Assembly (NCBI GenBank): GCA_963838925.1
Contig: CAWISW010000002.1
Location: 256,001-320,000 of the forward strand
Reading direction: 5' to 3'
Source of the DNA: an uncultured Nitrososphaerota archaeon
GTDB lineage: Archaea; Thermoproteota; Nitrososphaeria; Nitrososphaerales; Gagatemarchaeaceae
Length of the DNA stretch: 64,000 nt
Shown here: positions 2,049 through 4,731 of the stretch, piece after piece
How the letters are laid out: each line of letters opens with the position of its first letter
How positions within the stretch are numbered: the first letter of the stretch is position 1
Notes under the pieces: model-generated
Databases searched by the model: none
Seen by the model: the letters and a program-made list of their open reading frames with translations, nothing else
Told to the model about the DNA's origin: nothing
Translations under genes and position numbers: made by a program

Positions 2049-2532
2049 CCCTGCTGACCTTGGGGCTCTTCAGGTCGACGTCCATCTCCCAGGTGCGCTT
2101 CCAGCCCAGCTGTGCGTAGACCTTCCTTCCCACCAACGAAGCGTGCAGGAGCATCTTCCGATATCCGTGCTTCTTCGCCCACGCCATCGTCTCCAGCATG
2201 ACCATGCTCGCGAGCCCCTTCCTCCTGAACTTGGGGTCGGTGTATACCGACATGACGTAAGGGACCAGAGCTGCGGGACGGCCTCTGGAGGGCTGCTGCT
2301 CCCGCAGCCACACGCATCCGCTCGCCGCGACCCTTCCGCCGCTGGTCTCGACGATGTAGCCGTGGAAGAGCTTCTTCTTCATCATCTCCTTCGCCCATTC
2401 CGGGTAGGCCTTCACCGCGACCGCGCTCTCCTCAGGGGTCAGCGGCGCGTACGCCTCGAACATCGCGTTCCTGTGCTTTACCAGGACGTCCATGTCCTTC
2501 AACCTGGCTCTCCGGATCTTGAAGCTTGGCAA
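1996..2532 (-). CDS. GNAT-family N-acetyltransferase
   Basis: Motif A VYTDPKFRRKGLAS; C-terminal LHAS..GRKVYAQLGW. Confidence 0.85.
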   Translation of the reverse strand: MPSFKIRRARLKDMDVLVKHRNAMFEAYAPLTPEESAVAVKAYPEWAKEMMKKKLFHGYIVETSGGRVAASGCVWLREQQPSRGRPAALVPYVMSVYTDPKFRRKGLASMVMLETMAWAKKHGYRKMLLHASLVGRKVYAQLGWKRTWEMDVDLKSPKVSRVMQEKSPRPSKPSRAAS

Positions 2533-2645
2533 GCCCTGGCTCGGCCATGCCGGCCTTGGGACTTATCCTTTGGTGGTCAAGGCTCGGCGCATCAAAGGCA
2601 AGGGGAGCCACCTATTGGCGCCGACCCGGTGCGGCCCCCAAGTGG

Positions 2646-2666
2646 ACATATATGTGCATAAATGCA
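2646..2666 (+). promoter_or_regulatory. trp operon promoter region with palindromes
   Basis: ACATATATGT palindrome (2646-2655); TGCAT-AA-ATGCA (2655-2666) around TATA-like CATAAATG, about 25 nt before ATG 2689. Confidence 0.5.
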
Positions 2667-2688
2667 TATTAGCGAGCATACCGCTGCC

Positions 2689-2760
2689 ATGAACGCGAGC
2701 AACATGGGTGACCACTTTTGGCAGCGATCTCAAGCTGTCTCCGCTCTCGCTCAAAGCTGA
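2689..2760 (+). CDS. uORF overlapping the trpE 5' end (MNASNMGDHFWQRSQAVSALAQS), candidate Trp-sensing leader
   Basis: ATG at the predicted TSS; sole Trp codon in CAC TTT TGG; the +1 frame is TrpE. Confidence 0.45.
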   Translation: MNASNMGDHFWQRSQAVSALAQS

Positions 2761-4150
2761 ACGGCTCCTAACCAAGGACTCTCCCAGCACCCTCTTCGTC
2801 AAGGTCCAAGACGAGTTCGAGAGCGCGTTCCTCCTGGAGTCCGCGATAGGGGCTAGGAGGCTGGCGGAGTACTCGTTCATAGGATTCGAGCCTCAGACGG
2901 CCGTTACCGTAAAGGACGGCGTCCTGAGGACCAAGTCCATCGACGGCGCGAAGGACAGCATGAAGACAAAGGACCCGCTCAAGGACCTGAGGCAGCTCGT
3001 CGCCGCTCAGGGGTCTCCAGATCTCACCGCCCGCAGCCCCTTCCGGTTCGTAGGGGGCGCCGTCGGGTACATCTCATACGACTCGGTCCGCTACTGGGAG
3101 CGCATCCCGACAAAGGCGAAGGACGACCTTTCCCTCCCCGACATGGAGTTCGGGATCTACACCGACGGGATAGTCTTCGACCACATCAACAAGGGGGTCC
3201 ACTACTACTCGCTGGGCCGGGCCAACAGGCTGAAGGAGGTCGAGTCGCTCCTGAGGCGGAGCGCCGCAGATCAACACGGTGGACTCACCGCGCCAAACGA
3301 CGCGAGGCCCACGGTCGAGAAGGAGAAATTCAAGGCCATGGTCGAGACCGCCAAGAGGCAGATCACCGCCGGGGACATCTTCCAGGTCGTCCTATCGAAG
3401 CGCTACGACTTCGAGCTCCAGGGCGACCTTTCCATGTTCTACCAGGCGCTCAGCCAGATCAACCCCTCCCCCTACATGTACTTCCTGAAGTTCGGAGAGA
3501 CCAAGATAGTAGGCTCGAGCCCTGAGATGCTCGTCCGCGTCGAGGACCGCCGGGTCGAGACGTTCCCGATCGCCGGGACGCGCCCCCATCTCGCTGACGC
3601 GAAGGAGAACGCCAAGCTCACGAAGGAGATGCTCAAAGACCCGAAGGAGAGAGCCGAGCACACGATGCTGGTCGACCTCGCGAGGAACGACGTCGGAAGG
3701 GTTGCGAGGTACGGGAGCGTCAAGGTCCCGGAGATCTTCACGGTCCAGCAGTTCAGCCACGTGCAGCACATAGTCTCCCGCGTCGTCGGGACGCTAAGGG
3801 AGGAGTTCGACTCGTACGACGCGATGCGCGCGATGTTCCCCGCGGGCACCGTCTCGGGAGCCCCCAAGCCCCGGGCCATGGAGATAATCGAGGAACTAGA
3901 GCCAGTGAGGAGGGGGCCCTATGCCGGCGCGCTGGGCTACTTCTCCTTCAACGGGAACGCGGACTTTGCCATAACCATCAGGACGCTCGTGGCGAGGGGC
4001 ACCAAGTGCAGCATCCAGTCGGGCGCTGGCATCGTAGCCGACTCCGACCCGGAGAAGGAGTGGCACGAGACCGAATCCAAGGCGGCCGGCCTCATGAAAG
4101 CGGTCGAGAGCGCGACGGGCCGCAATCTCATCGGGGAGGGGAAGGATTGA
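2708..4150 (+). CDS. trpE: Anthranilate synthase component I
   Basis: LLES, NPSPYM, GSSPE, PIAGT, EHTMLVDLARND, FPAGTVSGAPK motifs. Confidence 0.96.
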   Translation: MTTFGSDLKLSPLSLKAERLLTKDSPSTLFVKVQDEFESAFLLESAIGARRLAEYSFIGFEPQTAVTVKDGVLRTKSIDGAKDSMKTKDPLKDLRQLVAAQGSPDLTARSPFRFVGGAVGYISYDSVRYWERIPTKAKDDLSLPDMEFGIYTDGIVFDHINKGVHYYSLGRANRLKEVESLLRRSAADQHGGLTAPNDARPTVEKEKFKAMVETAKRQITAGDIFQVVLSKRYDFELQGDLSMFYQALSQINPSPYMYFLKFGETKIVGSSPEMLVRVEDRRVETFPIAGTRPHLADAKENAKLTKEMLKDPKERAEHTMLVDLARNDVGRVARYGSVKVPEIFTVQQFSHVQHIVSRVVGTLREEFDSYDAMRAMFPAGTVSGAPKPRAMEIIEELEPVRRGPYAGALGYFSFNGNADFAITIRTLVARGTKCSIQSGAGIVADSDPEKEWHETESKAAGLMKAVESATGRNLIGEGKD

Positions 4151-4731
4151 AGGTCCTGGTAATCGACAACTACGACTCGTTCGTCTACAACCTCGCCCAG
4201 TACGTGGGGGAGCTTGGCGGCGACCCACAGGTCTTCAGGAACGACGAGATCACAATGGCGCAGGTTCGCGACATGGCCCCCGACCGCATCATCATCTCCC
4301 CGGGCCCCGGACATCCGGCGGACAGGCACTACTTCGGCGTCTGCGAGCGCGTCCTGCAGGAGGTCAGCCCCAGCGTCCCCACCCTCGGGGTGTGCCTTGG
4401 ACACCAGGGGATAGGCACCTCTTTCGGGGGGACAGTGAGCGGCGCCACCCGGCTTATGCACGGCAAGACCAGCATGATAGTCCACGACGGGCAAGGGCTG
4501 CTCAAGGGGGTGAAGAACCCGTTCGAGGCGACCCGCTACCACTCCCTCGCCATCCAGAAGGACGACATCCCCGCGGAGCTCAGGGTCACCGCTCTCTCCA
4601 TGGACGACGCCGAGATTATGGGCGTAAGGCACAGGAAGTACCCCATCGAGGGCGTCCAGTTCCACCCAGAGTCGATCATGACGGGCGAGGGAAAGAAGAT
4701 AATCCGAAACCTACTCAGGGGACAGCGATGA
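4147..4731 (+). CDS. trpG: Anthranilate synthase component II (glutamine amidotransferase)
   Basis: IDNYDSF, SPGPG, GVCLGHQ, QFHPES; TTG start overlapping the trpE stop. Confidence 0.96.
   Translation: MKVLVIDNYDSFVYNLAQYVGELGGDPQVFRNDEITMAQVRDMAPDRIIISPGPGHPADRHYFGVCERVLQEVSPSVPTLGVCLGHQGIGTSFGGTVSGATRLMHGKTSMIVHDGQGLLKGVKNPFEATRYHSLAIQKDDIPAELRVTALSMDDAEIMGVRHRKYPIEGVQFHPESIMTGEGKKIIRNLLRGQR

Follow-up and report, generated by a model that had tools for sequence, protein, structure and literature searches.

A candidate tryptophan-sensing +1 frameshift at the start of trpE in archaea of the phylum Thermoproteota

How do ribosomes enter the first gene of the tryptophan operon when the best-placed start codon ahead of it lies in the wrong reading frame? 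The question is raised by trpE, the gene for anthranilate synthase component I, of an uncultured Nitrososphaerota archaeon (GenBank assembly GCA_963838925.1), examined here in a stretch of 64,000 nucleotides (nt) of contig CAWISW010000002.1 (forward strand, positions 256,001 to 320,000; hereafter the window, with positions counted from its first letter). A short open reading frame (ORF) that begins with ATG overlaps the start of this gene out of frame and holds a single tryptophan codon at the point where trpE would have to be entered. Comparison with related loci suggests that trpE is expressed through a programmed +1 frameshift at the sequence NUU-UGG, which would sense charged transfer RNA (tRNA) for tryptophan; this statement as a whole appears probable. 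Its parts are not equally strong. That frameshifting operates in the clade is very likely and that it operates in the trpE gene of the window is likely, while a response to tryptophan, given that the shift operates, seems quite probable. What the comparison shows is a conserved cassette, a TGG frame kept open before the site, the lack of an in-frame start in many lineages and the position of a nearby Shine-Dalgarno (SD)-like block; slipping by the ribosome, any response of it to tryptophan and the part played by that block are inferred.

The source genome, a member of the Nitrososphaerales with a GC content of about 63%, has as its closest named public relatives metagenome-assembled genomes (MAGs) titled Nitrososphaerales or Thaumarchaeota, together with Ca. 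Gagatemarchaeum. ORF and Pfam analysis places a tightly packed trpEGDCFBA operon on the + strand of the window, with trpE at its head and TrpG, D, C, F, B and A domains downstream. The ORF at 2708-4150 is identified as TrpE by its position at the head of the operon and by two Pfam domains (Anth_synt_I_N, 2e-32; Chorismate_bind, 7.7e-97), the first of which begins already at residue 24. The trpE frame runs from GTG 2708-2710 onward as V/M-T-T-F-G-S-D-L-K, with TTT at 2717-2719 and GGC at 2720-2722; a TGA at 2690-2692 closes it upstream, and GTG 2708 is the only ATG, GTG or TTG ahead of the TTT. A second frame, here called the 0 frame or TGG frame, is common to ATG 2689-2691 and ATG 2704-2706 and reads MNASNMGDHFWQRSQAVSALAQS up to its stop; it places TTT at 2716-2718 and TGG at 2719-2721, and ends at TGA 2758-2760, 13 codons after the TGG. 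The positions given in the original prediction, which proposed the frameshift from the letters of the window, all hold on the sequence.

To set this arrangement in context, trpE loci were drawn from 41 near-relative genomes (trpE match in 31), from public genome contigs (80 loci, of which about 50 are bacterial and served as an outgroup and five are archaeal but outside Thermoproteota), and from an order-wide sample (trpE in 316 of 401 genomes, a tally that includes three unpublished ones; 80 N-terminal regions taken, none from those three). The Nitrososphaerales family f12 contributed its best 30 loci (trpE in 57 of 61 genomes), a class-wide sample centred on a Bathyarchaeota genome contributed 30 (80 of 201 genomes), and a phylum-wide sample 40 regions (167 of 301 genomes). 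The TrpE frame was set by tblastn and the 5' end was then scored by script. Of 290 loci with a match, three were cut by a contig end, and 259 with distinct 80-nt contexts were left. A locus was counted as carrying the cassette if it had NTT-TGG, read as TTT-GGN in the TrpE frame, and if the TGG frame offered a start codon no more than 10 codons away without a stop between.

By this definition, the cassette is present in 169 of the 259 distinct trpE 5' ends: 111 of 136 in Nitrososphaerales, 33 of 34 in the Bathyarchaeia sample, 24 of 40 in other Thermoproteota and one of 49 in the outgroup of bacteria and other archaea. The original prediction had proposed to look in relatives for a tryptophan codon preceded by an out-of-frame ATG, and this arrangement does recur, with ATG or TTG as the start, at protein identities to the window TrpE down to about 35-45%. 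The nearest TGG-frame start is ATG in 144 of the cassette loci and TTG in 25, and it lies 5 codons from the TGG in 134 loci, 7 in 17, 6 in nine, 3 in four, 8 in three and 10 in two. The codon that would occupy the P site is CTT in 59 loci, GTT in 44, TTT in 38 and ATT in 28, so that NTT-T is found in all 169; likewise, the codon that would enter the A site after a +1 slip is always GGN, and a 0-frame stop always follows the TGG by 1-22 codons. The original prediction had anticipated YTT-TGG; TT-TGG is indeed conserved, but the P-site codon may be any NUU and not just UUU or YUU. It had also favoured ATG 2689 as a leaderless start, which suits the distance to the promoter in the window; this ATG, however, is confined to the window genome and absent from relatives of the same genus (L003, L004, L005 and L010 have no start there), and the conserved start is ATG 2704. 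An 18-nt pattern, ATGGGTGRNNNNNTTTGG, gave 43 matches in 38 of 41 f12 genomes, nearly always one per genome and at trpE, against two matches for a reversed control.

Two unusual forms of the cassette were encountered. The sole example outside Thermoproteota is in a Micrarchaeia MAG (L063, JBAZVF010000001.1), which reads ATG-GAC-AAA-GGC-GGT-TGT-TTT-TGG and so starts 7 codons before the TGG; since its TrpE is about 47-49% identical to that of the window, the gene may have moved together with the cassette. Four loci of family f34, genus g104 (L266, L267, L288 and L289), have the variant ATG-TGC-CTT-TGG-CAG-TAA, with the ATG just 3 codons before the TGG. In these loci a GGGG block lies upstream of the ATG, although its distance to the slip codon is the usual one; another TGG stands farther upstream in the same frame, and there is no in-frame trpE start.

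The evidence that bears most directly on how TrpE is reached concerns which frame is read before the site. In 48 of the 169 cassette loci the trpE frame has no ATG, GTG or TTG between the upstream stop and the TTT; lack of a conserved in-frame start was among the supporting signs named in the original prediction. In 13 of these 48, which belong to the Nitrososphaerales families f5, f7 and f11 and to two other Thermoproteota families, the stop immediately precedes the TTT (type GTG-AYY-TAG-TTT-GG), while in 21 it is the TGA within ATGA (the Bathyarchaeia type ATG-AGG-GAT-NNN-NTT-TGG). The next canonical in-frame start in the 48 loci lies a median of 50.5 codons downstream (range 4-192), inside the Pfam domain. 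The raw sequences of individual loci illustrate both types: in L022 the TrpE ORF is open solely from the TTT at 1444 and the overlapping frame reads ...KLGDLVW, and in L197 an SD sequence, GGAGAG, is followed 8 nt later by ATG-AGG-GAT-AAT-ATT-TGG, the TrpE frame opening only with the codon that follows the overlapping TGA.

A frame-blind count was made on all 171 Thermoproteota loci with an N-terminal in-frame TTTGG. Within the four codons before the site, stops occur in the TGG frame of none of them, in the trpE frame of 42 and in the third frame of 70; by this measure the TGG frame, rather than the trpE frame, is kept open ahead of the site. In family f11, the fourth codon varies between TTA and CTA, a synonymous (Leu) change in the TGG frame, and the TAG is kept in the TrpE frame. 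In some lineages a TAA or TAG directly follows the TGG in the 0 frame (for example L029 and L121). Because stops thus bound it on both sides, TAG before the TTT and TAA or TAG after the TGG, the shift would be confined to the NTT and TGG codons. Within the motif, neither overlapping frame constrains nt 9-13, which are free, whereas nt 4-8 are fixed in both, so the block behaves as an RNA motif with a spacer and not as a conserved peptide in either frame; for this reason counts of stops and starts were used in place of a codon-level selection test between frames.

Codon choice at the site points in the same direction. The Phe codon is TTT in every cassette locus, as against 1435 TTT and 1526 TTC among the other Phe codons of the same trpE genes, 77 TTT and 526 TTC in the 33 loci with GC of at least 55%, and one TTT and 22 TTC in trpE of the window. 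As the cassette is itself defined by TTT, a fair test must turn to relatives in which TTC stands at the corresponding position; the single such relative found, L141, has CGG in place of TGG and an ordinary GTG start. The GG that follows the TTT is invariant, and the remainder of the TrpE N-terminus is poorly conserved. TrpE proteins without the cassette (L007, L019, L030, Thermoprotei-like loci and bacteria) have no F-G at that place, which together with the invariant GG argues for a constraint on UGG rather than on glycine. In 162 of 168 loci, the TGG of the site is the only one in the short ORF.

Just upstream of the shift site lies the SD-like block, for which Nitrososphaerales give the consensus GGGUGR and Bathyarchaeia either GAGGGAU or GGGGUAU. 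The 16S ribosomal RNA (rRNA) of the window genome ends in ...GCCGGAUCACCUCCU-3', and the GGGUGA block of the window is complementary to this tail (...GAUCACCUCCU-3'). The duplex energy with the 16S tail is -8.5 kcal/mol at the window locus; over 168 loci, the 12-nt segment made up of the start codon and the codons up to codon 4 averages -8.6 kcal/mol, versus -2.55 for control 12-mers of the same genes, of which 3.1% reach the median duplex energy of the motif. Counted from the P-site codon, the best-pairing 6-mer begins at -10 or -9 in 124 of the 134 loci with a 5-codon start and in 28 of the 35 loci whose start is 3, 6, 7, 8 or 10 codons away. This constancy, whatever the distance of the start, indicates that the block is placed relative to the slip site and not to the start codon, and the block is retained even where a TAG blocks the GTG frame. 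The annotated GTG 2708, for which the original prediction could see no SD site, is conserved in Nitrososphaerales, but as part of the GGGUGA block that persists where its frame is closed by TAG. The block may help in that it makes the ribosome pause, in that it favours the +1 register, or in both ways.

Initiation in the TGG frame is consistent with the upstream sequences of several lineages. In Bathyarchaeia, a GGAG-type SD sequence lies about 8-10 nt before the TGG-frame ATG; in the loci of f15/g58, an ATG placed 7 codons from the TGG follows AGGAGA, and the TGA of ATGA shuts the TrpE frame. In family f12, 27 of 27 loci have a TATA 8-mer (matching TTTAWATA in at least 7 of 8 positions) that begins 29-32 nt ahead of the ATG. 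Leaderless archaeal genes have the promoter box about 26 nt away, and all 11 Thaumarchaeota examined were classed as rich in leaderless mRNAs, according to PMC6028130; read against that distance, the promoter geometry suggests that f12 mRNAs probably start at the 0-frame AUG. In the family of the window itself, a good match to a TATA-like box was seen in 6 of 16 loci, at 38-43 nt before the conserved start, which implies a leader of about 10-17 nt. By our own count on the upstream sequences, the ATAAAT block is 46 nt from the conserved ATG, and at the same distance in L001 and L002. In the window genome alone, ATG 2689 may be a leaderless start; since it is in the same frame as ATG 2704, the logic of the scheme would be unchanged.

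Taken together, these features suggest the following sequence of events in the window. Ribosomes would start at ATG 2704, and perhaps at ATG 2689 too, and translate the short frame M-G-D-H-F until codon 5, UUU 2716-2718, occupied the P site, with UGG 2719-2721, the single Trp codon in this ORF, standing in the A site; at that moment GGGUGA 2706-2711 would be placed to pair with the 3' tail of 16S rRNA. With Trp-tRNA plentiful, the UGG would be read, a short throw-away peptide would end at TGA 2758-2760, and no TrpE would be made. With Trp-tRNA scarce, the A site would stay empty, the peptidyl-tRNA could slip from UUU to the overlapping UUU one base on, and GGC (Gly) would be read, leaving the ribosome in the trpE frame (M-G-D-H-F-G-S-D-L-K...). 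The downstream trp genes, which overlap stop-to-start, would follow through translational coupling; such overlaps, including the ATGA that joins trpG and trpD at 4728-4731, suggest that these genes are coupled to trpE. Sensing of Trp-tRNA is the natural reading because a single Trp codon is in the A site, the gene is the first of the pathway, the genes behind it seem to be coupled, and the arrangement resembles the frameshift of bacterial release factor 2 (RF2). More broadly, it is reasonably probable that this is an ancient Trp-tRNA sensor widespread in Thermoproteota, in which the +1 slip is the sole entry to trpE and an anti-SD-pairing block with initiation-like spacing assists; in many lineages the slip would be the only route to TrpE. 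The coordinates of the features in the window are collected in Table 1.

Table 1. Features around the proposed shift site at the start of trpE (window positions)
Feature	Position	Strand	Remarks
Imperfect dyad GTGGACAT-ATAT-GTGCAT with TGTACA-like half-sites	2642..2659	+	Just upstream of/overlapping the TATA-like box
TATA-like box CATAAATG, putative promoter	2657..2664	+	
First TGG-frame ATG, at a distance of 10 codons from the TGG	2689..2691	+	Genome-specific; centre of the TATA-like box about 28 nt upstream
TGA closing the trpE frame upstream	2690..2692	+	
Conserved start of the short 0-frame ORF (M-G-D-H-F-W...), 5 codons before TGG	2704..2706	+	
SD-like block GGGUGA, 4 nt before the P-site codon; includes annotated GTG 2708-2710	2706..2711	+	Complementary to the 16S tail
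Candidate shift site UUU-UGG-C	2716..2722	+	0 frame: P site UUU 2716-2718, A site UGG 2719-2721
Candidate shift site after the proposed +1 slip	2716..2722	+	P site UUU 2717-2719, A site GGC 2720-2722
trpE coding body, +1 frame (anthranilate synthase component I)	2717..4150	+	
TGA ending the unshifted 0-frame ORF	2758..2760	+	23-residue peptide from 2689, 18-residue from 2704
TTGA overlap: trpG start TTG 4147 / trpE stop TGA 4148-4150	4147..4150	+	Preceded by GGGGAGGGG

Several other explanations of the locus deserve consideration. In the lineage of the window, TrpE could start at GTG 2708, the ATG mini-ORF being either a relic or a decoy or competitor through which initiation at the GTG is lowered, and frameshifting would then be needed only in lineages without an in-frame start. 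A GTG does stand 3 codons before the TTT in 108 of the 169 cassette loci, L141 (TTC-GGC, no TGG) must use that GTG, and L126 has apparently been turned into an ordinary SD-plus-TTG start by a 2-nt change. The GTG, however, sits in an SD-like block that is kept despite a TAG two codons on and that is kept as well in Bathyarchaeia lacking the GTG, and lineages with the GTG likewise show no variation in TTT and TGG, despite a strong preference for TTC; a GTG start would need neither. In f12 it is the ATG rather than the GTG that the promoter geometry sets at the 5' end of the mRNA, and a ribosome stalled at the UGG would cover the GTG and so repress TrpE in starvation, the opposite of what a biosynthetic gene requires. 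An ordinary GTG start in this lineage therefore seems unlikely. The same low standing is given to the proposal that the +1 frameshift is real but constitutive, a correction, of fixed efficiency, of an ancient frame disruption or a means of keeping the level of TrpE low, independently of tryptophan. Comparative evidence for frameshifting is silent on regulation, and UGG is partly forced by UUU followed by a GGN glycine codon in the trpE frame. Yet the glycine is not conserved in TrpEs without the cassette, so that a requirement for UGG accounts better for the invariant GG. Moreover, the cassette has been kept across at least two archaeal classes although ordinary starts evolve easily (L007, L126, L141 and genus g23), and it is found at trpE only, both with the 18-nt pattern in the 41 f12 genomes and in a NUU-U scan of the source genome described below.

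Two further explanations dispense with frameshifting altogether. The SD-like block might direct a non-canonical start in the trpE frame, for instance at an AUA, AUU or AUC two codons before the TTT or at the TTT itself, and the initiation-like aligned spacing of the block from the TTT would suit such a role. Of the 48 loci that lack a canonical start in frame, moreover, 28 have a near-cognate codon between the stop and the TTT. But there is no near-cognate codon in the other 20, the stop comes right before the TTT in 13, and a non-canonical start leaves unexplained the TGG frame that is always open (stops in 0 of 171 loci), the fixed ATG or TTG and the invariant TGG; it is accordingly very improbable. 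Chance overlap of a short ORF with the start of trpE, which one genome by itself could not exclude, is contradicted by the conservation data (the 169 of 259 loci, the 0 of 171 TGG-frame stops, the bias to TTT and the trpE-specific pattern), and practically no weight is left to it.

A number of observations weigh against the proposed frameshift and its regulation. An in-frame GTG is present 3 codons before the TTT in the window and in 101 of the 111 Nitrososphaerales cassette loci, so that some GTG initiation of TrpE is possible there without a shift. Twenty-two of the 136 Nitrososphaerales loci lack the cassette and mostly have ordinary in-frame starts, which makes it dispensable, and L141 (G388:C149; TTC-GGC/CGG) shows that a GTG start is workable once the TGG is lost. 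The raw spacer from block to P-site codon is 3-4 nt, and the aligned spacing is about 6-7 nt and thus initiation-like, because the block pairs with AUCACC and not with CCUCC of the 16S tail; in the RF2 shift, an aligned SD spacing of about 3 nt is thought to drive the slip. GUU and AUU as P-site codons (72 of 169 loci) would give a first-position mismatch on +1 re-pairing. Among the 38 tRNAs found by aragorn (intron mode, whole genome), there is one tRNA-Trp(CCA), but no tRNA-Phe was found in this 87%-complete assembly, where archaeal tRNA introns may hide genes, and its anticodon is therefore assumed to be GAA. Finally, the sample is non-random, consisting of best-scoring matches and of loci picked for family diversity, and related genomes are not independent.

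The loci without the cassette are themselves informative. L007 (G014:C40), of the same genus as the window, has TTG-GCG with a GTG eight codons upstream, and genus g23 (L122-L124) keeps TTTGG but has in-frame upstream starts and no 0-frame start. L015 and L126, both among the 22 exceptions, have cassette-like sequence in another frame relation: in L126 (G053:C15), a 2-nt difference sets the TTG of TTTTGG in frame with TrpE behind the SD-like block, while in L015 (G015:C8, a long-read MAG) the cassette is present and the TrpE body lies in yet another frame a few codons on, an extra break that we suspect to be an assembly indel rather than biology. L126, L141, L007 and L122-L124 look like natural 'revertants' of the cassette. 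That the cassette can be lost and replaced makes its retention elsewhere more telling.

Searches for related elements gave largely negative results. The source genome was scanned for other NUU-U cassettes, limited to A-site codons beginning with U, in which the start preceded the site by 2-8 codons, the 0 frame was stopped within 30 codons and the +1 ORF had 200 codons or more; of 76 raw matches, seven had an SD-like block, trpE among them, and no further credible case emerged. Three of the other matches with such a block resemble non-coding shadow ORFs, one is a normal gene with a nearby in-frame start, and the remaining two already have many in-frame starts upstream. No known RNA family was matched in Rfam at E<=1 within window positions 2400-3000. 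No downstream stimulatory structure was evident in 60-nt stretches from 40 of the 168 loci, whose folding z-scores were no different from control (means of -0.39 downstream and -0.24 across the site, control -0.10). In the full-text literature searched, with subscription-only journals and supplements such as the GeneTack cluster tables outside its scope, no description of frameshifting at trpE was found. Neither trpE nor anthranilate is mentioned in the accessible sections of the GeneTack survey (PMC3711429) or of a 2016 review of recoding (PMC5009743), and the archaeal frameshift cases given in those sections of the review are viral or concern Mg-chelatase only.

The surroundings of the operon offer some indication of a further layer of control. 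The imperfect dyad next to the TATA-like box is a candidate operator for transcriptional control by tryptophan, accessory to the frameshift cassette. An exact TGTACA occurs within 120 nt upstream in 46 of 161 cassette relatives versus 1 of 161 control stretches inside trpE (26 of 111 in Nitrososphaerales, 14 of 33 in Bathyarchaeia and 6 of 17 in others), mostly about 50-80 nt upstream. These boxes resemble the operator boxes of TrpY in Methanothermobacter and may be bound by a TrpY-type repressor; if they are TrpY-like, transcriptional control by tryptophan would act on top of the frameshift. No TrpY-like small regulator was evident next to the operon. Divergent from trpE is a gene for a GNAT acetyltransferase (1996-2532, - strand), and beyond it, on the same strand, 161-1525 encodes a 454-residue protein with weak helix-turn-helix matches below the Pfam cut-offs. 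Elsewhere in the genome, a second chorismate-binding paralogue (G000:C3:597545-598393) is 29% identical to TrpE residues 198-479, with one TGA within the match, and may be a PabB/MenF-type enzyme.

Among known systems, the closest in mechanism is bacterial prfB, the gene for RF2, with its +1 frameshift site AGG-GGG-UAU-CUU-UGA-C. In both cases a short 0-frame ORF lies near the 5' end of the gene and the main product is in the +1 frame; a P-site NUU followed by U permits +1 re-pairing (CUU-U in 59 of the 169 loci here); the A-site codon is one whose slow decoding would trigger the shift, UGA in prfB and UGG here, one base apart; and an upstream SD-like block is complementary to the 3' tail of 16S rRNA. 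The feedback logic would be alike too, with scarcity of the decoder raising synthesis of the product. The two differ in that Trp-tRNA is proposed to be sensed here and the release factor in prfB, in that the product here is a biosynthetic enzyme heading an operon, so that the locus is no member of the prfB family and resembles it in mechanism only, and in that the archaeal hosts lack RF2. In addition, the block here pairs with AUCACC at an aligned spacing of about 6-7 nt, in contrast to CCUCC and 3 nt in prfB, and the site is only about 5 codons from the start.

Similar comparisons can be made with eukaryotic frameshifting and with attenuation. The +1 frameshifts of yeast Ty1, ABP140 and EST3 occur at CUU-AGG-C, and antizyme +1 frameshifting serves as a metabolite sensor. 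As proposed here, the ribosome in these cases moves to the +1 frame, through slippage or occlusion, when the A-site codon is decoded slowly; in Ty1 that codon is limited by a rare tRNA, a 'hungry codon'. They are eukaryotic, however, and without an SD-like element, and the tRNA in Ty1 is constitutively rare, whereas the archaeal cassette would respond to the charging level of the amino acid made by the regulated gene. As in trpL attenuation, ribosome speed over the Trp codons of a tiny ORF would report on Trp-tRNA and control the trp operon. Unlike trpL, the mini-ORF has one Trp codon in nearly all loci and no tandem pair, it overlaps trpE rather than preceding it, no terminator or antiterminator structure is evident (from the folding z-scores and the lack of an Rfam match), and the output would be a change of reading frame, not termination of transcription. 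In tryptophan-starved human cancer cells, ribosomes shift frame at UGG, as described in the abstract of PMC13751296. There, the shifts are an error that gives aberrant peptides; here, a selected and conserved switch is proposed.

If the proposed frameshift is confirmed, it would have several implications. For annotation, a standard gene caller cannot give the true trpE start in the 48 of 169 cassette loci that lack a canonical one, and elsewhere the called GTG may differ from the start actually used. Family f12, which includes single-contig, 99%-complete genomes, we assume to consist of marine ammonia oxidisers; if so, cultured strains exist. The cassette also bears on whether SD-like sequences act on elongating archaeal ribosomes. 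To our knowledge, and judging from the accessible sections of the 2016 review (PMC5009743), no cellular +1 programmed frameshift would have been known in archaea before this one. Nor would there be an earlier natural case of a 'hungry codon' frameshift that regulates an amino-acid biosynthetic operon, so that a process long studied as an error would be used as a regulator. The cassette would provide a third basic route by which amino-acid supply is coupled to biosynthetic genes, beside repressors and leader-peptide or T-box attenuation, and a conserved mechanism for archaea, where the regulation of tryptophan synthesis is poorly known.

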